From positions 248,001 to 305,327 of the forward strand of contig JBDOQK010000044.1 of NCBI GenBank assembly GCA_040437565.1: DNA of 57,327 nt, in the 5' to 3' direction. The notes below the pieces were generated by a model. It ran no database searches and had not been told where the DNA came from. It saw only the letters and a list, made by a program, of their open reading frames with translations. The position numbers and the translations under genes were made by a program. How positions within the stretch are numbered: position 1 is the first letter of the stretch; each line of letters begins with the position of its first letter. Positions 3,646-47,000 of the stretch are shown here, in pieces. Origin of the DNA: Albugo candida (taxonomy: Eukaryota).

Positions 3646-4779
3646 ATGGCGACACGTCAGAAAAATGGATCCATTTCATCACTTCCGTCCGAATCGAATG
3701 GAAAATCAATTAATTTCAATGTGATTTCTCCCAAAGGAATATCCAAAAAGACACCAAATGCTCACGTCAATGGAAAAGAGCCAACAATTGGACTTCAACG
3801 TCGTCGATTATCTGTTGTTAGTGATAACAAATTAGTCGAAGGATTGGCTCAAGTCACAACGTCAGAGACCGAATGCATTGAAAATGGATCGGGTGCCATC
3901 ACGTCCTTTGCTGGCGTTTCTAAGAAAGGGTATGCGCCATATAATCCACGCAAAAAGAATCAAGATTCGATGGTTCTACAATTTGATTCCGACACCAAAA
4001 CGCTCCTTTTCTGTGTGTTTGACGGACACGGAGAAGCCGGAGATTTAGTCTCACAAGCTTTACGCGATAAATTCCCAGCGGAATTGTGTAAACATCCAAA
4101 ATATCGCGTAAAAAAAGACCCCAAAGCGCTTCAATCGGCAATTTCCGACTCGCTTCAAATTGTGGAACGGAAAATATTGCGTGATTCGAATATCGACACG
4201 GAATTTAGTGGAACTACCGCAGTGATTGCACTCATCCGAGATCATGTGTTGATTACTGCTAATATTGGCGATTCTCGCATTGTTCGTGGGTACATGGACG
4301 CCGAGTCCACTATCCATTCGCAAGATATCTCTATTGATCATAAGCCTGATCTCCCGGACGAAAAAGATCGAATTCTTAAGAGCGGAGGACGGGTATTTGC
4401 TGTCGAGTATGATGATGGAGTTGATGGTCCTCCACGCGTTTGGCTGGGGCATTTGGATGTTCCAGGCTTAGCAATGTCTCGATCTCTTGGAGATGCAGTT
4501 GCTCACACGGCGGGTGTGACATCAGAGCCCGAGTTTTCCATTCATACACTGAAAGCATTGGATCGATGTTTTGTGATGGCGACAGACGGACTTTGGGAAT
4601 TTATGACAACAAAAGAAGTCATTGAGTTGGCTTTAAATGAAGAGAACCCCAAAGCAGCGGTCGATGTGCTGTTGGATGAAGCGAATCGTCGATGGATGAA
4701 AGAAGAGCAGGTTATTGATGATACGACTGTCATTGTGGTCTTTATGGATTTTCAGGATCAGAAGGAAGCAGCCAAATGA
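3646..4779 (+). CDS. PP2C/PPM-family Ser/Thr protein phosphatase
   Basis: Motifs NQD, FCVFDGHG, SGTTA, ANIGDSR, DHKPD, GLAMSRSLGD, ATDGLWE, DDTT; intronless, 377 aa. Confidence 0.95.
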   Translation: MATRQKNGSISSLPSESNGKSINFNVISPKGISKKTPNAHVNGKEPTIGLQRRRLSVVSDNKLVEGLAQVTTSETECIENGSGAITSFAGVSKKGYAPYNPRKKNQDSMVLQFDSDTKTLLFCVFDGHGEAGDLVSQALRDKFPAELCKHPKYRVKKDPKALQSAISDSLQIVERKILRDSNIDTEFSGTTAVIALIRDHVLITANIGDSRIVRGYMDAESTIHSQDISIDHKPDLPDEKDRILKSGGRVFAVEYDDGVDGPPRVWLGHLDVPGLAMSRSLGDAVAHTAGVTSEPEFSIHTLKALDRCFVMATDGLWEFMTTKEVIELALNEENPKAAVDVLLDEANRRWMKEEQVIDDTTVIVVFMDFQDQKEAAK

Positions 4780-31300: not shown

Positions 31301-34300
31301 CCAACACAGATCACGCACAGCTTCTTCGCACGGAACTTAACGAGGAAGAAACCAGGCGCAAAACACTTGGTTCCTGGCATCATTTCAACAATACAATCAG
31401 ATACAGTGAAAAAGCTACCAAATTATTTCTCCGACCCCTACTCCAGGTTTACGCCAAGTATGCATTCCATCCACTTAACGCATCGACGGATCTCAAGCCA
31501 CTTCCCCTGGCTGTAACGGAGGCGATTCATCGTAATTACTAAGCACAAATCTTTCAATCATCTTTAAAGGAATAGCTCTCCAGTGTTCATTACTGCAGAC
31601 ATGACTCAGTTCAGCTAAGCTCATTCCTCCAGCATACCATACAAACCCTTACCGATCACGATCGCGCAGTTCTCGATGCACCTTTTACGGCGAACGACTT
31701 TTACCGGTCAATCAAGACGTCACTTCGAAGCAAAGCTTCCGGATATGATGGCCTTCCAGTCGAATATTATCAACTTACAATATCGACTTGGGAACGGTTC
31801 TTTGAGTTAGTTTACCCCGCACAACTATCCAAAGGACGAATGACCAAGTTCCAACGAAGAGCTACAGTTACACCTATATATAAGAAGGATGACAGAAGCC
31901 TTCAAAGTAACTACCGACCTATTACTCTCCTCAATCATGACTCAAAGCTCGGTCCCAAGATTCTTACTTACCGCCTTCGCAAAGTCCTACCGAAGCTACT
32001 CCACACCGATCAAAGTGGCTTTGTTCAAGGAAGATCAATTCGACATACACTAGTGCGGTTTCAGGACATCCAACAACTCTGCCAGCAACGATTTTCCAAT
32101 GCTGGTGCTATCTTATTGGACTTCGCCAAGGCTTTTGACAGTGTGTTGTGGCCTACTCTTCACACTGTCTTAAACCATTATGACTTTGGAGCTACCTTTC
32201 GTTCATGGATCAAGAACTTTTACCACGATAACCTTATCGCTATAATAGTGAATGGTCGTGCAAGCAAGTTCTTTCAATTTGGAAGCGGATTTCTCAAGGT
32301 GATCCCCTTTCACCTTCGCTTTTTGTGCTCTTCCTGGAACCCTATATGGATTATCTCCGCGCAACGGCAGGTCACCTTGGCATACCCGTCCAACCTTCAT
32401 CAGTGCCTCAACACCTTGCAGCATTCGCGGACGATTGCATCGGTTTTCTCAAAGATTTCCGAGACACACCTCGCTTTATGGCCAAGGTCAAGGATTGTGC
32501 ACAAGCTACTGGTCTCCAACTCAATGCATCCAAAACTCAGTTATTTGGCTTTCAAGTACCTTCTCCGGATTCAGTGGATTCCTTGGCATTATTGCCTTGT
32601 CCTTTTTCTGCAGTGGTCCCCAAAGTCACGTTTCTTGGCGTGGAACAATACCAAAATCTCAACATAACTCAACGCTTCCCTTCCGTTCTCACCAAACTTC
32701 AAGCTCGACTTGTAGAATGGAGATTTCGAGGCAGGATACTGCATGGCCGCGCAGTGATCTTACGATCTATTGATTTACCTATTCTCTGGTACCCTTCGGC
32801 AGTTACGCCTCTTCCATCACATATTATCGAGTCGGTATGGAAGCTGTGCAAAGCCTTCCTATATCAACGGCCCATTGCTCTCAACAGTGAAATCAAGAGC
32901 TCGATGCATTCTAACAAAATTACGTTACCAGCAGCATGCGGTGATTTAGGCCTACCTTGTATCCGAGGTTTCTCCAAGCAATGCATCTTTTCCTCCTTAA
33001 AGACGGCATCGAGGCTTGTTCAGCCTGTAATCCCCCCTCCTGGTTCCTACCAGCGATTCTGTTAATGACGGAATCATTTGGTGGTACCAGTGCTGGTTTG
33101 GACTTACTCTATTCTCCCATCCATCTCTCAGCTATACCGCAATCTCGCTGGGCGTACCTTGGTCCCCTATGGTATTCAACCTTTTAACAATGGTATCGTC
33201 TCCTCCAAGGACCTTCCAACACTACTACCCATACTACCGATGCATTACAATCACCTTTATGGCGCCACTACCAGCGCGTGTTTGAACCGAAACAGCGCCC
33301 TATGGAACAAGCAAGTATACGTACTCGACTGCGTTATCAGCATGGATACCAAAATCTTTCCGACTTTATCGGTCACTTCGGTTCCCTGCCACTCACAAAG
33401 TTCTCAAAGCAGTCCTTCCCGTTACAGCTTTTCAGCGGAAAAGGGATTACATGGCCACACTCAACCTTTTCATCAAGTACTTTGAAACACTCTCCAGAGG
33501 CATCCCCACAGTACATGGTCCATTACTCCCTCAGCATATCGCTGCAGCATTTCATCAATGGTCTTTTGAAGACACATCTTTTCCTCGCGTTGGCAACCGA
33601 AGACACTATCACATGCTGCACCAACTACCGAAAATAGTGGTGCCTCCTGATAAAGCCTAGGAAGCAACACCGCCAACACAGTGGAATACTATGTGGAAGC
33701 GTGAACGGGCCCTCAATAAGGATGTGTTTCCAGTGTTTGCTGACCTTAAGTTCCGCCTCCAACACAATGGCTTAGGTCTCCGCGTCAGATATCGATACCA
33801 TACCTGTGATGTCCTTTGCTCCCATGGTTGTACTTCCCCCGAAACGGCCAAACACTTGTTCTGGGAGTATTCCATGGCTACAAATTTATGGTTTCATTCT
33901 CACTTTTCCATATTTGGCTGTCTAGAAGGCATCCTCACGTGGGAAACCGTAGTCTACGGCACCAACTTTGCCATTACAGCATCAGCTACCAGGACTTATG
34001 GTACTCACAATATCATTCGCGTCCTTGACGTTTTCCGTTGTATCATACTATAAACATTATGGCTTGCGCGCAATGCAGCTAACTTTCAGCACCAGGAAGC
34101 ATGCCCTGCGCAACTTTATCGTTTGGCACGTTGCTACCTCCGGGCTCATATTTGGCGCTTGAAGCACCTATCACCTACAAACGCTCAACTTATGGCCTTA
34201 TGTGACGTTTGTCTATAACGACATTTCACAAAGTCCGTTCATTACTGCGTTCCTCCTATGCATTGTCTACGCTCAACTCCTGACTTGATGGATTTAGCTT

Positions 34301-34900: not shown

Positions 34901-36697
34901 ATGCTGATCAGATTCAGATCTGATACGAATCTCTCGAATAAAGCGCTGTTCGTAACCGCTGGCCTTTCGTACATGCTTTCAAAATGCACACATGCGATCG
35001 GCACAAAACTCGCTACCTTCTGTAGTGATAAAAGAGCATATAAACCCTCAAATGGTCTCTGTTTGCGCTCTTTAGCAACAAATGTACCACGATTTGGAAG
35101 TATTCGAAAAGAATGGCACGCTTATATGGAGAAATTACATGATTATCCGCTATTACAACACATAGCTACAAATGTCGCGACATATTTCACAGAATCAAAC
35201 GAAATTGATCTTCATTTCCCACGCGACTTTCACGAACACTATCAGCTTGATGTGGTTCTTGGAGAGGGTGCATTTGGTTCTGTCTTCCGTGTCATCCCAA
35301 AGCTTTCTCAAAAAAGTGTATTTGCCGATTTGGAACTCGATTTAGCGGTCAAAATCATTCCAAAGAAGCGCATCATTCATTTCAAAGATTATGTGACGTT
35401 ACACCAAGAAGTACATATGATGGCATTACTAAGTGGTACACTCAATGTAGTCCACTTGTTCGGTGCCTACGAGGACAATAATGCGGTGTATTTGGTGTTG
35501 GAACACTGTTTAGGTGGTGATGTGGCTTCAGTGTTGAAAAGATCGGACGCTGATGGATGTAATTTGCCAACTGAAGCGCAAATCGCTACTTTTATGAGTG
35601 ATATATTACATGTTGTTTGGCAGTGTCACCTGCTGGAAATTTTGCATGGTGACTTGAAATTAGATAATTTTCTTTTTGCCACACCGTTTATTTCCGATGC
35701 AAAATATTTTCCGTTCCTCAAATTGACAGATTTTGGTGGCGCTTGTTTTCTTAGAAACGGCGAAACGCGTTACGGACTACGAGGTACACCGTTGTATACG
35801 GCTCCTGAGGTACTGACTTCTGCGTATTCACTTCCGGCGGATTTATGGAGTTGCGGAATTATCTTACATTGGTTACTTTCTGGTCATTACCCATTTACAG
35901 GACCTTTGATAGATGATGCAATTGTGCACCAAGAATTAGATCTGACGACAGAAATATTGTCAATTCGATCGACAGAAGCGAAGGACTTGCTTTGCCGGCT
36001 GCTTGAGAAAGATCCTAACAAGCGGATGACGGCGTTAGAAGCTCTCCATCATCCATGGCTTGCAAAACATAAAATTTTACATAAGAATGAAGGCGTGTCA
36101 TCTCTTAATGGTACAATGGTACAGCGTCTGCAATTCTATCGATCACTTAATCGGCTGCAGCAAGCTGTTCTTTTGGAATTGTCTCACTTTGTACCAATTG
36201 AATTGCGAGAGGACGTAGTTGTCCTATTCACCGAGTACGCCACTACGAGAACACTGGAAGCCCAGATCGGGATTCGTGAACTTGTATACTGTTTTGAACA
36301 AAGTGGGTATACCCTCACGCTTGGTGAGGTAAAAGCATGTTTGAATCGACTCGATTTGAATAGTGACGGTTACCTTTCACTGGACGAATTTTGCACGGCA
36401 TTTCTTGATTGGGCTCTTATACAGCAGCACGAACCAACGCAGTGGAAAAGTTTAGTCAACCAAGTATACACAAAACTAGACCGGGATTCAGATGCATGTC
36501 TTTCTTTGTCGGATCTCGCGGGATTGCATCCGTTCACACTATCGAATCAACGCGATCATTCAGATTTGAGACGCTGCTTTCAAGCCGTTGATACCGAAAG
36601 GAAAGGGTGGATTACATTACAACAGTTTGAAAGTCTATTGCATGTGCACAACGACAACTTGCATCATTATCCAAGTCGTGTAGTGCAAAGCGTATAG
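34901..36697 (+). CDS. Calcium-dependent protein kinase-like protein (kinase, junction, EF-hands); true start may be 34973 or 35126
   Basis: LGEGAFG, AVKII, HGDLKLDN, DFG, GTPLYTAPE, DLWSCG; junction MVQRLQFYRSLNRLQQAVL; EF loops DLNSDGYLSLDE, DRDSDACLSLSD, DTERKGWITLQQ. Confidence 0.92.
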   Translation: MLIRFRSDTNLSNKALFVTAGLSYMLSKCTHAIGTKLATFCSDKRAYKPSNGLCLRSLATNVPRFGSIRKEWHAYMEKLHDYPLLQHIATNVATYFTESNEIDLHFPRDFHEHYQLDVVLGEGAFGSVFRVIPKLSQKSVFADLELDLAVKIIPKKRIIHFKDYVTLHQEVHMMALLSGTLNVVHLFGAYEDNNAVYLVLEHCLGGDVASVLKRSDADGCNLPTEAQIATFMSDILHVVWQCHLLEILHGDLKLDNFLFATPFISDAKYFPFLKLTDFGGACFLRNGETRYGLRGTPLYTAPEVLTSAYSLPADLWSCGIILHWLLSGHYPFTGPLIDDAIVHQELDLTTEILSIRSTEAKDLLCRLLEKDPNKRMTALEALHHPWLAKHKILHKNEGVSSLNGTMVQRLQFYRSLNRLQQAVLLELSHFVPIELREDVVVLFTEYATTRTLEAQIGIRELVYCFEQSGYTLTLGEVKACLNRLDLNSDGYLSLDEFCTAFLDWALIQQHEPTQWKSLVNQVYTKLDRDSDACLSLSDLAGLHPFTLSNQRDHSDLRRCFQAVDTERKGWITLQQFESLLHVHNDNLHHYPSRVVQSV

Positions 36698-37416
36698 TTT
36701 AGCTATATCTATACCGCGTGTATACAGACGGAACAACACGTAAATGAAGGACTACGGGATCGTTATACTCGCAATTTTTATATTAAAATTTGTCAAGTGC
36801 ACATAGTTTCATGTAAATATAGAGAAACACATATTGCTTGTAACCGCCGACTGATCGTTAATGTGTCGTACCGTCGCGGCAGAGATGTAAGATATTAACT
36901 CAAAGGCAGCCAATAAGCTGTAGTGAGTTCATTCAACGGTCGTGACAGATCGTTTACGCGTATAGCAAAAAAAAAACACGGTTCATTGTGATATAAAGTA
37001 AGATCCTTTCGACGAAATGGTATTGAGTTGCGACACGCAATAGGATTTTATTGCACAACGAGCTGTGTTCTCCCCTATCCGTTCCCATTCTAGTATACGC
37101 TGAGAATTAATCTTACCAAGCCTCAAATAGTTTTCGTTTTTTTGTTGCACCTACTAGCCCTGCATCCGTACCAAGTATTCATTTTCACAGCGTTTCACTA
37201 TCCCCATTTCCACAATCCAAAAGCATCAAACACCAAAACTTGATATTTACTTCCGGGTGGTACCAAAACGATACCAATACTGCTTTGTTGAACATTTTTT
37301 CTATTCCGCACGATAAATTTCGAGTGTTTCCTTTCCTTCCTTTAAATAGGCTTTGAGTTCCATTCGAACAGATAAAAGAAACTCACACACTTCAAACAAG
37401 TAAACCGCTTCATAAA

Positions 37417-40400
37417 ATGGATCGAGTACGTACTCCATCGCGTCGGCGAGCAGATTCCAACTATTTTGAATTGGATGCGGATCGTCGACGAACGAAATCG
37501 GATCGCGTGGAGTGTTTTAGCCAGCGTATTGAATCTCTCAACATCACTTCTATACACGCAAGTCAGAGTGTCGGTGATCTCGATAATGACGAGATATCCA
37601 TCGATTCTTGTTGCAACTTGTTACATGCGAAATTTGGTTTTCAGGAAGGATCGATCGCGAATCAGCGGGAGCACGTGTTGTTATTATTAGCCAATGCAAA
37701 AGCACGTACAAGCTTATCGGAGCCTGTGGACCACTATATTAACCAATTACATGCCAAGTTATTCTCCAACTATAAAGACTGGTGTCAATTTCTTACGACC
37801 AAAACAGCTCATTTCGAATATGATCGACAAAAAACACAAATTCGGCATCCTTTCCATATGGAAATAATGCTTTATTTTTTGATATGGGGTGAGGGAGCCA
37901 ATTTACGACACATGCCAGAATGCTTGTGTTATATATATCACAAAATGCTGCTTCTACTGAATGAAAGGATTGCATCGTCAATTACGCAAGAAGAGGGATG
38001 GTTTTTGAATGAAATTGTACGTCCAATATGGAAAGTATGCAGTAATATGCAACGTCGCAATACACTTGGAAAACCACTGGAACATGTCCAAGTTTGTAAT
38101 TATGATGATATCAATGAGTATTTCTGGAAATCGTACTGTTTACAAGTGGACGTAACCAAAGTTGGGTACGAAATGACGCAATCACACGGCAAAACATTTT
38201 ACGAGCATCGAAGTATATTTACATTTATGCTCAACTATTACCGTATTTTCCAATTCAATTTCATGTTTTTACTTGCGCTGATCGTATTGGCTTTCGCAGT
38301 CACAATATCACCCAATGGCGGTCACGATGGATTTACTCAGTTTGGTCGTATGGGAGACACCGTCTCACCATTCACATCTCAAGACCTTGGACTCGCTTTA
38401 CTATCGCTTCCATTTGGACTCGCTTTACTCTGTCTTTTCAAATGTCTATTGGAATTGGCTCATACCGCTCACATCGTTTGTTCTCACGAGCCATCTTCCT
38501 CTTCCTCTCGGTCGTTCACATATTTTACAGCGCTCTGGGTTCGAATACTATGGCATTCAGGCTTTAGTTTTCTGTTGGGACTGATGATTGTGATCCCTTT
38601 TCGTGACGCTTCCAATACGAAATTGCTCGATTATTCGATTATAGCAGTTTTGGTATATTTGGTTCCTGGAATCGCTCTCGTGTTTGTCAATGCATTTCAT
38701 CCTCAATTGATATATGCAACAGCTATGCGGAAATTCGTTCGTGAAGGTAACACGTGTTACGTGGGTCGACGAATGACACCTCCACTCTCTTATCGCGTTC
38801 AATACACTGCCTTTTGGCTCATTCTATGGACACTAAAAGCTATCGTATCGTACTTTATTCTCGTTCGACCACTTATGCTTCCGTCATTGGCAGTCTTTCA
38901 AATGAAACTCAACTATAAAGTATCGTTGGTCTCATTCAGTAATATCGGTGTCTTAGTCGCATATTGGGCACCGAGTGTCTTTATTTTCAATTACGACACA
39001 CAGATTTACTTTACAATTTTCCAAGCTCTTCTCGGTGCATTCCAAGGCTGGCGGATGAAAACGGGCGAAATTCGTGGAGAAAAAGAAATGAGCAAAGCTT
39101 TTCGATTAGCTCCACAATTATTCGATCAGAAAATTGTCACGGGATTAGCACGATCTACTGATGCGACTGCGAATGGAATGCAATCGACTGGAAAAGCAGG
39201 AACGGTGGCTGCGTATGAGAGCCAAATGATGCTCCGTTTTGTGGTTGTATGGAATGAAATCGTCAATTCATTTCGGGAAGGCGATTTGTTGGATGATAAA
39301 GAAGCAGCAATCTTACAATATGATATTCGAAGCAATGGCGAAGTCTTTGAGCCCGTGTTTCTATCTGCTGGGAAATTGTCAGAAGCATCCGTTTTAGCGA
39401 TTCGCGCCGGGAAAGAAGGGAAAGGCGAATCACAATTCCAAGTGAGTTTAGTTGAAAGTGATTGTTTATCGGCTATTCGAAGCTTTTTTACCGCCAGTTG
39501 GTATGTTCTCGAGACACTTTTCGGAAGTCAAGATGGCAATGTGCTCGATGGAATTCGAATGATTGAAGAGATTGCGTCCAACGGCGCATTTATGCGATCA
39601 TTTATGGTCACTGAGCTTGGACGACTTCGTGTGGCGGCTTTAGACGTCTTGGAAGATATCTTGGATCTTCCAGATCCCGACACACAATCAACTCACATTC
39701 CGGGCGCATACGTTCACAATATGGGCGTCATACGTAATTTTGTGAGTAAAATGGATGCGCTTTTGTCGAGTTTGGACGCATTTTGCACTGCACCCGAGCT
39801 ACAAGGCAAATTTCTCCACACGAAATTCTGCTCGAGTTCTTCGGGATACGTGATCGCAGCTCAAGGATTAGTGAATTTGTATCAGAGCGATGTCGCAATG
39901 GGTGCAGCCACACGTGCGTGTCTCCTCTTGTCACTCGATAAAGCTGAAGCAATGCCGCGATGTCTCGAAGCTCGTCGACGTTTGGGATTCTTTATGAAAT
40001 CTTTAGTTATGGAAATCCCACAATTGAGCTCTATCCGCGAAATGCGTTCATTCTCAGTCGTGACGCCTTTCTACGCGGAAACAGTTTTATTCTCGATACA
40101 AGATCTCAACAATCCGCTGGTGAATCATCCAATCTTTCAGAATGTCGAGGAAGGCGGGAAAAATCTGACAATTCTCAAATATTTGAACAAAATTCATCCG
40201 GAAGAATGGGAGAATTTTTTGGAAAGAATTGACGTTGGAAGTGCTGAAGAAGCACAACAGCATTTTCCACAGGAAATCCGGCTTTGGGCATCGTATCGTG
40301 GCCAAACATTAGCACGAACTGTCCAAGGAATGATGCTATACGAAGAAGCAATAAAGATCCTTCATTGGCTCGAAATCGGCTCTGGGCACGGTCGAACTGC

Positions 40401-43400
40401 AGAACAGAAGCAACAACAATTACAAGATATGGTACGGCTTAAATTCTCTTACGTATGCGCCTGTCAAGTGTACGGGAAGCATCGAGCGGAGAATCAAGCA
40501 CAAGCCGATGATATCGACTATCTTTTAAAGGAGTATCCAAACCTCCGAGTAGCATATGTCGACACTCTGACGGATTCGACTACCAGCAGTAAAGTGTATG
40601 ACAGCGTATTGATCAAAAGTCAAGGTCCTGAAATCGTCGAAGTGTATCGCTTTCAGCTTCCCGGGGATCCAATTATCGGTGAAGGAAAGCCTGAGAATCA
40701 AAACAATGCCGTTCACTTTACACGTGGAGAATTCGTGCAGACAATTGATATGAATCAGCAACACTACTTTGAAGAGTGTTTGAAAATGCCTCAGCTCCTT
40801 CGAACGGCAGAACTTCATCCTTGTAAATTACCAGTTTCTATCATTGGAATGCGTGAGCACATCTTTACAGGCAATGCTTCCTCATTAGCGAAATTCAAAA
40901 CCTGGCAAGAATTAGTATTTGTGACACTATCACAACGTGTTTTGGCGACTCCGCTTTTCGTCCGAATGCATTACGGGCATCCCGATATCTTTGACAAAGT
41001 GTTTGCATTGACACGAGGCGGTCTCTCAAAAGCGAGTAAGGGAATCAATCTCTCGGAAGACGTATTCGCAGGATTCAATGCGACCTTACGCGGCGGTGTT
41101 GTGACACATGTCGAGTTTATGCAATGTGGAAAAGGCCGCGATGTCGCGTTATCGCAAATCTCCATGTTTGAAGGGAAACTGGCCAACGGTGCAGGAGAGA
41201 CATCTTTAGCACGAGAGGCGCATCGAATGGGTCAATTTATGGATTTTTTTCGGCTCAATTCGATGTATTACTCACACACGGGCTTTTACTTTGCGACTTG
41301 GATGACAATTGTCACCACATTTGTGTACATGTACTCGAAAGTATATGTCGCGTTGGCCGGTGTGCAGGAACAAGTGATTCTCAAGATGAATAGTACGGAT
41401 ATTCTCACACGCAATGAGGTATTTGGATTCCCGCGTCGAGCGTATGAAGACAGCAACGATATCATCAACACGCAGTATTACATTCAGGCCGGTTTGTTTC
41501 TGTCTCTTCCTCTGGTTATGGTGTACTTTGGCGAAATGGGCATACGGCACGGGTTTCTCCGTTTGATTGAAATGATCATCACTGGTGGACCGTTCTTCTT
41601 CATCTTTCAAGTCGGCACAACAATGCACTATTTCGATAACAATCTCGTGCATGGAGAAGCGCAGTACAAAGCGACTGGAAGAGGGTTCAAAATCACTCGG
41701 GAATTGTATGTGTTGCTGTATAAAGCGTACTCTGCCAGCCACTTTCGACGGGCGTTTGAGCTTATTGGATTGTGTCTTATCTATTGGATTTTTGGCGACT
41801 TTCATATTTGTCAAACAGAATTTCTTGTGGAGAACTCATTTGCTGCCGATTTTTGTGAAACAGCGCAAGGCTTTGGGGTGCAGACATTTGCCATTTGGAC
41901 CATTGCGATCACATGGATCCTCGCTCCATTCCTCTTTAATACGGATGGACTCGATTTCGAGAAGACAAAAGCCGACGTAAGAGCGTGGGCAACGTGGATG
42001 TACGCGGAAGAAGATTTCTGTGATCAAGATGGGACCATGAATGGAGGCTGGATCGGATGGTGGAAGAATGATCTCAAATTGTTCCATAACTCGAGACCAA
42101 TTGCCCGCTTCACAGTCATTCTTCGTGAGAGTCGTCATTTCCTTCTTATGTGGTACATTATCACATTGCGATGGCAAATGATCGTTGTTGGGATTGTTGC
42201 CGGCTTTGTGTTGCTGACGCTAGTTTGTCTGAGACTTGCCAGTGTTGTCGGCGGCAGAATGAGAGAATGGAAACCACGCAATCGATTAGTGGCGTATTGT
42301 CTCACATTAACTATTGTGGTGATCAGCTGCGTGTTGTCAGTTTTATTTGGTTTCGACGCCGATGGAAAGGATGTCATGGCCTTGTTTTTCGGGTATATGG
42401 CGGGATTGTATGGGCTCAATGAGACAGCGAGGATGTACAGTTTCGCATCGACATCTATTGCGTTCAGTATCGCGTTCCAACAATTAGCATTTCTATTCGA
42501 TTTTCTATTCTGTTCCGCGATGATTATCCCTCTTTTCGTCATGTCGGGTGTTCCATTTCTCAATATCATTCAGACGCGGATGATGTACAACAAGGGATTC
42601 TCACAAGTCGTATCGGCTTCTTCGCAATATGCGTTCTCGTTGGCGGCGTTTATGGGCATTTTGGGCGGCGGAGGATGTGGATGGATTTTGTACGTTTTCT
42701 CAGTGTTGGAATCCTCGCCGGAATTCATCAGTTACGCGACGAATTTCGGGTTATTGGACGGGAAAGCCGGTGATGGGACATTTACATACGTCTTTTTCAT
42801 TGCGTGCATTGTTGCGTCTCTGGCGGGAGGTATATTGAATTTCTTTTGTGGACGTCGACTTGCGATCGTATGCGGTGGATTAGTGACTGTGATTGGAATG
42901 ATTTGTATCACTGCTGCAGCGTCACAAGGCGACGGGATGTTACTTACGGGTGTCGCGCTTATGGGCTCATCCATTGGTATCGTTCTGCCGACAATCGCTG
43001 TGTATGTGTATGAGATATCGACACGCGAAGTTCGGAGTAAATCGCTTCTGATTCTCGGGACAGGTTTCATATTGGGAACACTTGTGGGCACAATTTGTAT
43101 GTCTTCCAATCACGAAGTCGGATGGGTTTGGCAGATCTTTGTAGCGACAATTGCGTTGTCATTGGTGACGCCTTCAGTGTATCTGTTCCCTGAAAGCCCG
43201 TATTGGATTTACATGCGTCACGGGTTGGATGCTTGTGAGCGCTGTTTGATCATTCTCCGACGTAAGGAAGGCGTCACAGAAGAGCTCAAGAGCATCCGAG
43301 AAGAGACGCTGGTGGATGCACGAGGCAGTTTGATGTACAAATTGAGTTTGGGATTGACACTTGTACTTCTTTCCGGATTCTCTCACGGAGGTCTCACGGT

Positions 43401-44091
43401 GTATATGTCGCACGCTTTAGAGTCTGTGGCGAACACGTGGGATTTCTATGCGAATTGTATCGCGTTACAGCTGGTTGGGGCCATCATGTCGTTCTTTGTG
43501 ATCGACCGAACAAGTTTGCGTCGATTACTATTGGGCACACTATTTCCCATTGCGATATCTGTCGCCGTTTTGGGATTCTACGCTACCACTACAACGTGGT
43601 CCGATCGATCGGCTCTTATTCTATTGCAAGTGGTGGGGCTTGTGCTCTACTTTTTCATCGGACTTGGGACATCGACAGCGCTTTGGGTGTCGTGTATTGG
43701 CTTATTTCCCACCAAACAACGCGCTGGGGTCGCGATTGCATACTTTATGGTGTACTTTTCTGTCACTTTGGTCGCTGTGTATGTACGTTCAAATTACTCC
43801 AAAGGCCAGTGGATGGAGAGCATTTATTTGTTTGTAATGGCGGGAATGTGTCTGATTGCAATGGCTCTTCTTTTTGGGGCTGGTGACTTGAAAAATGGTC
43901 TTATTAGCACGAAACGAGAGATGGAATCCGAACAACTTCGACTTCGTAGAACGCGTTCGGGACGACCGAGTGGACGATCTGTTGGAGTTGCGCGAAGTCG
44001 TAATATTAGTCGATCGAGAAATCGATCGCAAGTCTCCAAAAGCGGATATCAGTTGTATGAGTCACCGGCTGCTTCGGCAGCTCCAATTTGA
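37417..44091 (+). CDS. Beta-1,3-glucan (callose) synthase, GT48/FKS family, with a C-terminal MFS sugar-porter-like domain
   Basis: FKS1 domain (FGFQEGSIANQREH, YFLIWGEGANLRHMPE, NYDDINEYFW). Catalytic region: RLWASYRGQTLARTV, GEGKPENQN, QTIDMNQ, HYGHPD, LSEDVFAG, QCGKGRD, YKATGRGF. From ~42630 many TM helices with GRR, YEIS...R, PESP, DRxxxRR and LFPT..R. One uninterrupted 2224-aa ORF. Confidence 0.96.
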   Translation: MDRVRTPSRRRADSNYFELDADRRRTKSDRVECFSQRIESLNITSIHASQSVGDLDNDEISIDSCCNLLHAKFGFQEGSIANQREHVLLLLANAKARTSLSEPVDHYINQLHAKLFSNYKDWCQFLTTKTAHFEYDRQKTQIRHPFHMEIMLYFLIWGEGANLRHMPECLCYIYHKMLLLLNERIASSITQEEGWFLNEIVRPIWKVCSNMQRRNTLGKPLEHVQVCNYDDINEYFWKSYCLQVDVTKVGYEMTQSHGKTFYEHRSIFTFMLNYYRIFQFNFMFLLALIVLAFAVTISPNGGHDGFTQFGRMGDTVSPFTSQDLGLALLSLPFGLALLCLFKCLLELAHTAHIVCSHEPSSSSSRSFTYFTALWVRILWHSGFSFLLGLMIVIPFRDASNTKLLDYSIIAVLVYLVPGIALVFVNAFHPQLIYATAMRKFVREGNTCYVGRRMTPPLSYRVQYTAFWLILWTLKAIVSYFILVRPLMLPSLAVFQMKLNYKVSLVSFSNIGVLVAYWAPSVFIFNYDTQIYFTIFQALLGAFQGWRMKTGEIRGEKEMSKAFRLAPQLFDQKIVTGLARSTDATANGMQSTGKAGTVAAYESQMMLRFVVVWNEIVNSFREGDLLDDKEAAILQYDIRSNGEVFEPVFLSAGKLSEASVLAIRAGKEGKGESQFQVSLVESDCLSAIRSFFTASWYVLETLFGSQDGNVLDGIRMIEEIASNGAFMRSFMVTELGRLRVAALDVLEDILDLPDPDTQSTHIPGAYVHNMGVIRNFVSKMDALLSSLDAFCTAPELQGKFLHTKFCSSSSGYVIAAQGLVNLYQSDVAMGAATRACLLLSLDKAEAMPRCLEARRRLGFFMKSLVMEIPQLSSIREMRSFSVVTPFYAETVLFSIQDLNNPLVNHPIFQNVEEGGKNLTILKYLNKIHPEEWENFLERIDVGSAEEAQQHFPQEIRLWASYRGQTLARTVQGMMLYEEAIKILHWLEIGSGHGRTAEQKQQQLQDMVRLKFSYVCACQVYGKHRAENQAQADDIDYLLKEYPNLRVAYVDTLTDSTTSSKVYDSVLIKSQGPEIVEVYRFQLPGDPIIGEGKPENQNNAVHFTRGEFVQTIDMNQQHYFEECLKMPQLLRTAELHPCKLPVSIIGMREHIFTGNASSLAKFKTWQELVFVTLSQRVLATPLFVRMHYGHPDIFDKVFALTRGGLSKASKGINLSEDVFAGFNATLRGGVVTHVEFMQCGKGRDVALSQISMFEGKLANGAGETSLAREAHRMGQFMDFFRLNSMYYSHTGFYFATWMTIVTTFVYMYSKVYVALAGVQEQVILKMNSTDILTRNEVFGFPRRAYEDSNDIINTQYYIQAGLFLSLPLVMVYFGEMGIRHGFLRLIEMIITGGPFFFIFQVGTTMHYFDNNLVHGEAQYKATGRGFKITRELYVLLYKAYSASHFRRAFELIGLCLIYWIFGDFHICQTEFLVENSFAADFCETAQGFGVQTFAIWTIAITWILAPFLFNTDGLDFEKTKADVRAWATWMYAEEDFCDQDGTMNGGWIGWWKNDLKLFHNSRPIARFTVILRESRHFLLMWYIITLRWQMIVVGIVAGFVLLTLVCLRLASVVGGRMREWKPRNRLVAYCLTLTIVVISCVLSVLFGFDADGKDVMALFFGYMAGLYGLNETARMYSFASTSIAFSIAFQQLAFLFDFLFCSAMIIPLFVMSGVPFLNIIQTRMMYNKGFSQVVSASSQYAFSLAAFMGILGGGGCGWILYVFSVLESSPEFISYATNFGLLDGKAGDGTFTYVFFIACIVASLAGGILNFFCGRRLAIVCGGLVTVIGMICITAAASQGDGMLLTGVALMGSSIGIVLPTIAVYVYEISTREVRSKSLLILGTGFILGTLVGTICMSSNHEVGWVWQIFVATIALSLVTPSVYLFPESPYWIYMRHGLDACERCLIILRRKEGVTEELKSIREETLVDARGSLMYKLSLGLTLVLLSGFSHGGLTVYMSHALESVANTWDFYANCIALQLVGAIMSFFVIDRTSLRRLLLGTLFPIAISVAVLGFYATTTTWSDRSALILLQVVGLVLYFFIGLGTSTALWVSCIGLFPTKQRAGVAIAYFMVYFSVTLVAVYVRSNYSKGQWMESIYLFVMAGMCLIAMALLFGAGDLKNGLISTKREMESEQLRLRRTRSGRPSGRSVGVARSRNISRSRNRSQVSKSGYQLYESPAASAAPI

Positions 44092-47000
44092 GTGTAGCGA
44101 ATAGGACGAAATTTGTATTGCGTGAATTTATGGTATCGATTGAATACACCGTTTTTTGTATTCTGTTTTTGTGAGAATTGGATGTTGTTGTCAGTATCCA
44201 TCGGATGATACAGAAGGCTCAAAAGTTGTTGAAAAGATCAGTTTGTGCGGTTTTGAATCAGCGAACACTGTAAGAACACTCTGAATTGTTAAATGCTGCA
44301 GAGAGCATTGGGATCGAGACATAGGACCACAAAGAGAACATCCACAAATAACGGGTTTCCAGTTGTTGAAGTGAGGTGTTCATCAGCCTTTGATGTTAAA
44401 TTCTGATGAACACGCTCTCCTTTGATGAAGCAAATCGGCACTGCGTTTCAATCAAACAGCGCTGCCGTCCGATCTTTTATGACGCATTCGTTCTAAAGGG
44501 GGAAGTGATACATGTAAGAGGCTTTCTATTTGTATATCGCAATGCTCAACCCAGCATGGGCTCTGATCAATGCGTTAGAATTGTTCTGTATGGCTGCCGT
44601 TTGTTTTGTGATACGTAGAGAAGCTTCGTTACGTTTGCCACAGTGCGAATTTTCTTTGCTTTAATGTGCGAGCCGTCCTTTCCTATTGCAGCAAGAATCT
44701 AGCAAGCTATATCGGAAAGGATGAGAGCAAAGGGACCCCACATCATAGTAAGTCTACCAGACTGGTGCAGGAGCTGCGTCTGCTTGGTCTATTTGGCTCG
44801 AGGAAAATACTGAATCATATACGCGTTCGTAGTCGAGCGTATGAATCGAAGGCAATTCAATGGCGTCTTTGGGCTTCGCTTAGCAATCGAATCAAAAGAC
44901 AGCAGATGGATATCGCAAACATGCTCACGAATTGTTGCATTGATACTAAAGCAGTCGCAAGTGGTCAGTCGGGTGCAGCATATGATTGCGTCTTTTTTCA
45001 CAATATACGCAATTGTGTCGCTGGAGCGTCGTTGGATGAGCTCCTGAAAAAGTTTCCAATGATTATATTCTTTATACTTTACAAATTTGAGCTTAGATGA
45101 ATGGTCAAGAGAGCGGAAGAGAATTCTTTTTCCAGCCAGCTGTGATAGTCAGATCGATGCAACATCGATATGTACCCAAAAGTTGAAATGACGGCTTGAA
45201 TCAATCTATTTCTTGGACCCTCCTTTTGTCAATGACCAGCGATAGACTTGCAGAAATCAACAAATTGAAAAGTATACACACCATCAAAGCACAAGAAATT
45301 TTACGAATGTCAAAATTGTCGCTACTTCTTCATCAGTGTACGCGTCCATATCTCAGATTATAAGAGGGGTCCTAAAAGGTTGCGTCGAAAATTAACAAGG
45401 TATTTATCGATTTTCTTTATCTGGGCAGAGGGAGGCAAGCAAGCTATTTCACTTGAAACTTTGGCAGCATAAATGCAGCCCATAAATGATGTTTACACCG
45501 AGGGATGAAGCGTGTTGAGTAATGAGATGATACCAGTGGGTCACATTTTATCAGCTAATGCATACAAGTAAATCCTTGAGAGATACAAGAACACAGCAGC
45601 GCACATCACTATATATGTCATCATCAATGCCTATCCGTTGGATGGACTCCAGCTCAGTACAAAAGACCCTGTACCCATACACAAAATGAATACAGCATAA
45701 AGTCATTTGCGGTGCTAGTGGAGCTCTAGAGACTTCTAATAGTATTAATTGTATCCTGGCACGAAACCTTAATACTTCAAGAGAACGAACAATCAATGTG
45801 ATAACGGATTTCCTTCACTTTAATGAGACTACGGCAACAGTACCGGACGTGCTTTGCTCTGTGTCAACAGATCGACACTCATTGCATTATATCGAACTAC
45901 TTCGTCTGTATTCCTCATGAGTAGAATAGCCTTACTCATACGGGACATCTTTCTCAAGTGCTTGCGTCGAGCCAATCGTTCTCTCTGATAGCGACTCCAA
46001 CTCAAGCACCCAACTGAATTCTACGATTCCTTCTCATTAGTACATGGTATGTTCGGCTATAACCATACCTATTTGCTGATACTCTGTCTGGATCGAGAAG
46101 TAACGGCTACCGCGAGTCATCTTCGTTCTTGGAATTTGTGGCAGTGTGTCCCTGTATTTATTTTTCACGTTTTGACGATTCGACCTCAATAACTTTTGCT
46201 TTCAGTAGTAGTCATCATAGCTACATGTGACCAAAGCTTATTCAACCACCTGTCACTGACCCAATGTCGTCCTAATTTGTCGTGACTTACTTTGCGTGGA
46301 ATGGTTCCGACGTTAAATATTTTTGATGAAACAAGCGTTTGTATGGAATCGTTTGCTCACGGACGTATATATTGCAGTAAATGCTTACTATGTTGTGTAT
46401 CATTTTGTTTCTGATGCTTGTTGCACATGATCATATGCTATCGAGGCCATCCTTGCTGCTTATTCCGAAAGAAATGCGAGTGAGACACGAAGATGATAGT
46501 AAAAGATCCGTAGTAGCATTACACAACTAGATTGCATGCCTACAAGATTGAATGACTGAGAGAGCTGTTATCATGATATATTGTCCATATTGTGTCATTT
46601 AAGGACGACAGAATGGCACCATATACATGAAAAGCAGGGTTTACTGATGATCATTTTGACTTAATAGTATGCAATCAATAAGATAATAAGTGAATTGCGA
46701 CTCGGTCTGACCTTCGAAGTCATGGCATCTGACTGCTTCTGTTGATACGAAAATGAAAAAATCGAGACCTTGATTAGGACAACGAGATTCGATATGAAGC
46801 ATCAAGTTCTAAACGATAATTAGGTGAACAGAAAAGCTTACAATGGCACACTCGATGATACCAAAGTGCTTAAAACAAGCAGACTGTATCCATTGACCAG
46901 GGCATGCTAGCCGACTGGATATATATCGTGGCCAAATACGAATAGAAGCATAGGAATGGACGAGTTCACTTGCATTGCTTTCATCAATGTCCAACGGTAC

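Follow-up and report, generated by a model that had tools for sequence, protein, structure and literature searches.

The stretch of DNA considered here, hereafter called the window, comprises 57,327 nucleotides of a contig of Albugo candida (JBDOQK010000044.1). On its forward strand, at 37417-44091, it carries an intronless oomycete gene which encodes, with hardly any room for doubt, a single polypeptide in which a GT48 beta-1,3-glucan synthase is joined to a complete 12-helix domain derived from sugar porters in the major facilitator superfamily (MFS). The gene almost certainly belongs to the MFS-bearing glucan synthases that have been described as a family from oomycetes and Pseudofungi; its architecture is already known, and the window gene adds no architectural novelty. 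The question of interest is what the second domain does. The reading preferred here, that it serves as a transporter-derived accessory module of the synthase and not as a hexose importer, falls slightly short of an even chance on the evidence of conservation patterns, and the explanation as a whole, identity and mechanism taken together, stands at an even balance between right and wrong.

The open reading frame (ORF) runs uninterrupted from ATG to stop over 6.7 kb, with neither a stop nor a frame change between the two domains or elsewhere, and the closest in-frame stop on its 5' side is found at 37354. Pfam recognizes FKS1_dom1 (PF14288) in the N-terminal part and the catalytic domain at 611.9 bits against a gathering cut-off of 37.2, followed by Sugar_tr (PF00083), which scores 88.5 bits (curated cut-off 22.3) with E 5.8e-25 over residues 1759-2149, and MFS_1 at residues 1787-2116 (E 5.3e-15). 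An earlier note, made from the letters of the DNA only, had described one chain made of a synthase and a transporter-like module, encoded by a single intronless ORF, and had expected PF00083 in the C-terminal region; all of this is borne out. Homologues of 2220-2240 amino acids (aa) can be aligned with the protein over its entire length, so that no intron has to be assumed. Along its synthase part, a profile of the whole family finds yeast FKS1 and GSC2 (E 1e-127 to 1e-131). The third-position GC content is 0.506 in the MFS part (42604-43956), higher than the 0.433 of the synthase part (37417-42603). The tail behind the MFS domain includes the letters RSRNISRSRNRS, and the clade consensus has a comparable RSRN.SRSR pattern; this Arg/Ser-rich tail could be a regulatory or phosphorylated segment.

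Twelve hydrophobic segments are seen in the hydropathy profile within residues 1740-2154, and for residues 1735-2181 hydropathy and AlphaFold2 secondary structure agree on 12 transmembrane (TM) helices, accompanied by intracellular helices. The model used here covers residues 1280-2224 (945 residues, 26 aligned sequences) with a mean predicted local distance difference test (pLDDT) of 71.4; in its MFS part, blocks of ten residues mostly range from 72 to 92, and the helices can be assigned in sequence to TM1-TM6, to three short helices on the intracellular side, to TM7-TM12 and to one more helix at the C-terminus. The MFS fold, whose absence the earlier note had named as one ground for refutation, emerges from the structural comparison as well: in a Foldseek search of the PDB every row down to rank 50 was an MFS protein, and the sugar porters STP6, GLUT3, STP10, GLUT1, PfHT1, GLUT5, XylE and GLUT7 reached target-normalised TM-scores of 0.70-0.78. 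The glucose transporter GlcP from S. epidermidis (PDB 4LDS) was matched by the domain sequence alone at E 1.1e-13, by an eight-sequence profile of the domain at E 6.7e-21 and by the whole-family profile at E 3.5e-25, with the sugar-porter matches falling at positions 1742-2187 of the latter. Judged from these alignments, the match to sugar porters is far beyond chance. The synthase TM block 1280-1729, searched by itself against PDB sequences, gave no match at E <= 0.001, and a protein atlas returned generic Sugar_tr clusters only, with a score of 0.89, below the 0.9 mark.

The sugar-porter hallmarks listed in the earlier note could all be located, and those of the N-terminal half and of the cytoplasmic side hold. 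The picture is less complete than the note had it, though: the QQ...N signature of TM7 is missing, Gly takes the place of Glu in the (A)ELFP motif in 28 of the 29 proteins of the clade to which the window protein belongs (in the other clades the Glu is kept in 44 of 44), and within this clade no PETKG-like motif can be recognised. The names of the cytoplasmic motifs (GRR, E...R, PESPR and their second-half counterparts) are those in use for sugar porters, and their positions were computed. Likewise, the TM7 motif QQxxGxN (Q280/Q281/N286 in GLUT3, Q250/Q251/N256 in GlcP) is a sugar-binding element of these transporters; its columns come from alignments. According to the alignments with PDB sequences, the window protein has S1986, G1987 and G1992 at the columns of GLUT3 Q280, Q281 and N286. 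For a wider survey, the MFS parts of 73 fused proteins (out of 75 proteins of at least 1900 aa) were aligned to one profile, with 65 free-standing sugar-porter matches, 12 of them gapped, as a control. At the Q280 column no fused protein has Gln (0/73), as against 31/65 controls; at the Q281 column the figures are 0/73 and 34/65, and Asn at the N286 column is found in 2/73 fused proteins and 26/65 controls. Since the free-standing controls keep the signature at these columns, the columns are correctly placed. We infer from the TM7 columns that in all 73 proteins examined the MFS domain is probably no canonical hexose binder. A polar residue is retained in the window clade at the column of GLUT3 N315, with Gln in 21 and Glu in 8 of the 29 proteins.

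Conservation within the MFS part is unevenly distributed. Across the 73 fused proteins, 31 positions are at least 90% identical, and nearly all of them belong to the cytoplasmic face, to the intracellular helices or to the Gly, Ser and Ala residues of TM1, with W2090 of TM10 in addition. The pair E1866/R1873 is invariant or nearly so, and further kept residues are D2030, F2097, G2161 and E2168, together with several positions in the intracellular helices. TM7 ranks lowest of all elements, with a mean of 0.38, and across clades the least conserved elements are the cavity helices TM7, TM8, TM11 and TM2. Within the window clade, the C-terminal half of the MFS domain shows the lowest conservation of the whole protein, 0.56 compared with 0.82 in the catalytic region.

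The earlier note had suspected that the architecture might be oomycete-wide and not new, which proved right: the MFS profile was matched by 73 of the 75 relatives of at least 1900 aa, all named ones being oomycetes, and the architecture is in print (PMC11302233 and PMC5795050). When the C-terminal 525 residues were compared with proteins of nearly the same length, 31 others were found, 31 of 31 with precomputed PF02364 and PF00083 assignments; 27 of these carry an organism name and all 27 are oomycetes, from the genera Albugo, Lagenidium, Pythium, Globisporangium, Phytophthora, Nothophytophthora, Plasmopara, Hyaloperonospora, Peronospora, Peronosclerospora, Achlya and Aphanomyces. Overall identity to proteins of the same clade (Albugo, Lagenidium, Pythium, Phytophthora, downy mildews, Achlya and Aphanomyces) amounts to 51-68%, the closest named relative being an Albugo candida protein with 68% identity overall and 89% in the catalytic core. 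One very divergent protein, P0186, which shares 33% identity with that of the window, was considered as a fusion from outside the oomycetes and rejected, its relatives being from Globisporangium, Pythium and Phytophthora; it led to two further clades. A search with its MFS region gave 48 proteins; 42 of the 48 have precomputed PF00083, and the 36 of the 48 that carry an organism name are all oomycetes. Four long oomycete synthases (P0211, P0212, P0213 and P0225) align to the MFS region of P0186 with 37-44% identity over 94-98% of its length and have no precomputed Sugar_tr; in some paralogues, the MFS domain seems to have drifted below recognition by Pfam.

A phmmer search of the MFS domain against 1.84 billion representative sequences returned 668 matches at E <= 0.001. 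Among the best 150 of these 668, three proteins of at least 1900 aa were present, all with GT48 plus Sugar_tr and originating from Aphanomyces and Peronosclerospora, and the closest free-standing matches were about 25-30% identical. These free-standing matches comprise a myo-inositol cotransporter-like protein from an acoel worm, a plastidic glucose transporter 4-like protein from a plant, a protein from a yeast and metagenome proteins. As the closest ones are both distant and taxonomically scattered, no donor of the MFS domain can be named. A free-standing form of this particular domain was not present among the matches listed; two short matches labelled callose synthase (P0033 and P0034) lie on contigs of 3.2 and 1.8 kb. 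In the searches for fused forms outside the oomycetes, a Hyphochytrium sequence was not found among the matches.

A FastTree phylogeny of the catalytic core, built from 42 named rows (33 unnamed or unlabelled rows were left out; FastTree local support values), resolves four peronosporalean paralogue clades in addition to the Saprolegniales sequences, all of them MFS-bearing. The window protein resides in a clade of 12 rows (support 99), where it pairs with the Albugo candida protein (support 91). Because all clades of the tree bear the MFS domain, the fusion is older than these duplications and than the split between Saprolegniales and Peronosporales; it predates at least four deep paralogue clades.

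GT48 enzymes produce glucan from cytosolic UDP-glucose and extrude it through their own membrane domain, as in FKS1, and the GT48 part of the window protein would do the same. Its MFS part would have given up hexose transport, a step suggested by the loss of QQ...N in TM7 together with the weak conservation of the cavity-lining helices. What selection would have kept is the cytoplasmic face (GRR, E...R, PESxxW and the intracellular helices), the glycine-rich TM1 next to the synthase and one Trp in TM10. Along these lines, the MFS part may be described as a built-in accessory membrane module of a structural or regulatory kind, similar to a 'pseudo-transporter', which would dock on the synthase or signal to it through its cytoplasmic face and TM1, and which might retain a conformational switch. 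The fuller evolutionary version of this proposal can only be put forward tentatively, and we hold it to be somewhat less probable than its opposite: a sugar porter would have been captured before the oomycete radiation and would have lost monosaccharide binding; as an indispensable subunit of the glucan synthase, with a structural or regulatory task, it would then have persisted in all paralogue clades over hundreds of millions of years, with its cytoplasmic face and intracellular helices contacting the catalytic domain. A prediction of the complex between the TM block 1280-1729 and the MFS part 1730-2180 gave no answer (score 0.00 in both runs, with the controls not folded and the custom alignment not used), and it constitutes no evidence either way. 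If the statement on hyphochytrids in PMC5795050 is right, the capture would have preceded the split between oomycetes and hyphochytrids.

All of this presupposes that there is one gene. A synthase gene and an adjacent transporter gene which are read through by chance, or which form an operon-like pair, would give the same impression, and the possibility of an artefactual fusion was raised as a theoretical caveat in PMC5795050. For the window gene such an explanation is very improbable indeed. The frame stays open over its full length, the continuous GT48-MFS architecture recurs in the long relatives surveyed above, and the junction PLFVMSGVPFLNIIQTRMMYNKGFSQVVSASSQ is among the best-conserved stretches of the protein. 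According to the AlphaFold2 model and the alignment, it leads directly from the last helix of the synthase into TM1 of the MFS domain without a low-complexity linker, leaving no space for a terminator, a promoter or a start. TM1 begins at about residue 1735, or about 42619, close to the domain start near 42630 given in the earlier note. In addition, Logan contigs from run X1 (40761-44150) and run X3 (40761-44513) span the junction, with no indels and no joints inside the gene. On the other side, both runs are RNA by the guess of the tool only, a bridging contig is no proof of one transcript, and the protein is known here from the gene alone; the bridging contigs therefore provide weak support for a single gene. 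Of the other runs, X5 consists of short pieces of low depth, and X11 of one piece of 159 bases.

Given one protein, the MFS part may still be a working transporter with a changed substrate, for instance another sugar, an oligosaccharide or a sugar derivative, so that local solute flux would be coupled to glucan synthesis. The complete 12-TM sugar-porter fold, the invariant or nearly invariant GRR of motif A, E1866/R1873 and PESPYW, the TM10 Trp kept in 71 of 73 proteins, the polar residue at the N315 column of the window clade and the retention of the domain in four paralogue clades throughout oomycete history are all in line with transport. Yet QQ...N of TM7 is absent from 73 of 73 fused proteins at columns where the free-standing controls recover it, the cavity helices are the parts that vary most across clades, the gating motifs of the C-terminal half are degenerate in the window clade (with the Glu to Gly exchange in 28 of 29), and UDP-glucose, the substrate of the synthase, is cytosolic and needs no import. 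Taken together, a changed-substrate transporter is rather unlikely. That the MFS domain itself helps to move the growing beta-1,3-glucan chain across the membrane appears improbable by comparison with either. The position of the domain immediately behind the last synthase helix, with a nearly invariant junction, and the loss of the monosaccharide site while the TM10 Trp stays would suit such a role; but MFS proteins work by alternating access and form no open conduits, and the cavity lining is poorly conserved. Extrusion was suggested, as a speculation, by the authors of PMC11302233; according to the same paper, FKS1/GSC2 and the group-1 oomycete synthases function without an MFS domain.

Several points weigh against the accessory module, which remains the preferred reading. 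Loss of the hexose signature is compatible with transport of another substrate, and the retained motif A and PESPxW/E...R network is also what one would expect of a working rocker-switch transporter. The TM7 columns of the more distant clades were aligned with less certainty. Substitutions in TM5 (GLUT3 Q159) and TM10 (GLUT3 E378) had been considered as well and were dropped, the same columns not being uniform in the free-standing controls; with these two sites unclean in the control, the argument comes down to TM7. Which of the conserved residues point towards the synthase and which towards the cavity was deduced from helix and loop assignment only, and an earlier AlphaFold2 model of the domain by itself (8 sequences) was poor, with a mean pLDDT of 54.5 and a predicted TM-score of 0.58, and had to be replaced. 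Finally, a full-text literature search found no functional study of the MFS part, be it a knock-out, a truncation or a transport assay.

Table 1. Features of the fused synthase gene, with positions counted from the first letter of the window.
Feature	Position	Strand	Residues	Remarks
GT48 beta-1,3-glucan synthase with C-terminal MFS domain, whole ORF	37417..44091	+	2224 aa plus stop codon	
FKS1_dom1	37861..38145	+	149-243	Pfam E 8.1e-28
N-terminal TM block of the synthase	38245..38985	+	277-523 (hydrophobic segments)	hydropathy
Glucan_synthase (PF02364), catalytic core	40249..42018	+	945-1534 (best stretch)	Pfam E 2.5e-183
C-terminal TM block of the synthase	41287..42603	+	1291-1729	hydropathy, AlphaFold2 model
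Junction PLFVMSGVPFLNIIQTRMMYNKGFSQVVSASSQ	42529..42627	+		nearly invariant in 28 aligned proteins
Sugar-porter-like MFS domain, 12 TM plus intracellular helices	42604..43956	+	1730-2180	
GRR, motif A, TM2-TM3 loop	42850..42858	+		G 70/73, R 71/73, R 72/73 fused proteins
YVYEISTREVR, cytoplasmic end of TM4	43003..43035	+		E1866 in 73/73
PESPYW, after TM6	43189..43206	+		P 73, E 72, S 73, W 73 of 73
SGFSHGG, TM7, at the columns of QQxxGxN of GLUT3 and GlcP	43372..43392	+		
DRTSLRR, TM8-TM9 loop, second-half counterpart of motif A, degenerate in this clade	43504..43524	+		D2030 in 71/73
WVSCIGLFPTKQR, TM10 Trp plus LFPT..R	43684..43722	+		W2090 in 71/73
C-terminal tail, Arg/Ser-rich	43957..44088	+		pLDDT below 50

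The contigs of the two bridging runs show some further features around the gene. Between the upstream kinase gene and the synthase gene, uncovered gaps extend over 36775-36980 (X1) and 36730-36805 (X3), and contig depths are unequal between neighbouring genes; together with the GT..AG skip of X3 given below, this would fit an RNA origin, but such holes prove nothing and were not used as evidence. The contigs over the gene start begin 436 nt (X1, 36981) and 611 nt (X3, 36806) 5' of the ATG; should X1 and X3 be RNA, this would mean either an uncommonly long 5' leader or a second, abutting transcript. Inside the gene, the contigs of both runs break at 40761-40776, with identical loose ends at 40678 and 40709; we would guess at a branching of the assembly graph, caused by sequence that paralogous synthase genes have in common. 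Downstream, X3 skips 44504-44614 (GT..TA; 59 other letters lie between) and 44747-44833 (GT..AG). These skips could represent introns in a neighbouring gene, or else the strains may differ here.

The gene directly upstream (34901-36697, +) encodes a protein of 598 aa in which EF-hands come after a protein kinase domain (E 3.4e-50), an architecture resembling that of a calcium-dependent kinase. Further away, the ORF 31840-32667 (+), which overlaps the ORF 32346-33065, carries an RVT_1 reverse-transcriptase domain (E 3e-15) and is probably what remains of a retroelement, in a stretch (28-34 kb) that is richer in GC and strongly C-skewed, while a 377-aa ORF at 3646-4779 (+) has a PP2C phosphatase domain (E 1.8e-35). 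All 11 ORFs of at least 200 aa in the window (ATG start, standard code, open ends allowed) are located on the plus strand, which may be due to chance or to co-oriented genes.

Oomycetes, among them major pathogens of crops and fish, have beta-1,3-glucan as a main polymer of their walls and for storage. If the pseudo-transporter proposal is true, the MFS module would offer a pathogen-specific handle on cell-wall synthesis which plants, animals and fungi lack. The present analysis contributes the lack of a canonical hexose binder in 73 proteins, the conservation of the cytoplasmic side and an age of the fusion beyond at least four paralogue clades, and these three additions narrow the set of worthwhile experiments. 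Few characters of domain architecture unite oomycetes with hyphochytrids, and the fusion is among them. As a synthase whose extra membrane domain is lineage-specific and absent from the host enzymes, the fused protein constitutes a plausible selective drug target, as was argued in PMC11302233.

The GT48-MFS architecture was described in 2024 in a study of the Saprolegnia membrane proteome (PMC11302233), which reports three such Saprolegnia proteins in plasma-membrane fractions, enriched in detergent-resistant membranes. According to this study, the MFS-bearing group is conserved across Saprolegnia, Aphanomyces, Phytophthora and Albugo and lacking in other eukaryotes, the fungal and plant enzymes having no MFS domain; the authors speculate on a role in glucan extrusion. 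Earlier, the 2018 Hyphochytrium genome paper (PMC5795050) called the fusion common to Pseudofungi, the claim on hyphochytrids being based on its Table S2, and it cites a domain-architecture paper from 2011 with the fusion among 53 oomycete fusions.

Compared with known systems, the window protein is closest to the 'group 2' synthases, such as SPRG_15364, SPRG_09073 and SPRG_20212 from Saprolegnia parasitica, which have FKS1_dom1, GT48 and then a C-terminal Sugar_tr/MFS domain in one ORF (PMC11302233); in architecture, there is no difference between them, and the window protein is the orthologue in a further lineage, related to Albugo. With yeast FKS1/GSC2 (PDB 7XE4, 7YUY, 9WZS and others) and the plant callose synthases it shares homologous GT48 catalytic and membrane regions, but the solved yeast chains, with 1876-1931 aa, match the synthase part of the family profile only. 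A functional parallel can be drawn to SV2A, a transporter-like MFS protein without shown transport, in which, as proposed for the synthase module, an MFS fold is kept for a non-transport role; structures of SV2A and SV2B are among the Foldseek fold matches, and the likeness is one of function only, with no specific sequence relationship shown. Finally, the sugar porters of PF00083 (GlcP, PDB 4LDS; GLUT1/3, STP10, XylE) have in common with the window protein the 12-TM fold, the intracellular helices, GRR, E...R, PESPxW and the TM10 Trp. Unlike these transporters, the window protein has S-G...G in place of QQ...N in TM7, and its clade carries Gly for the Glu of ELFP and has no recognisable PETKG-like motif.

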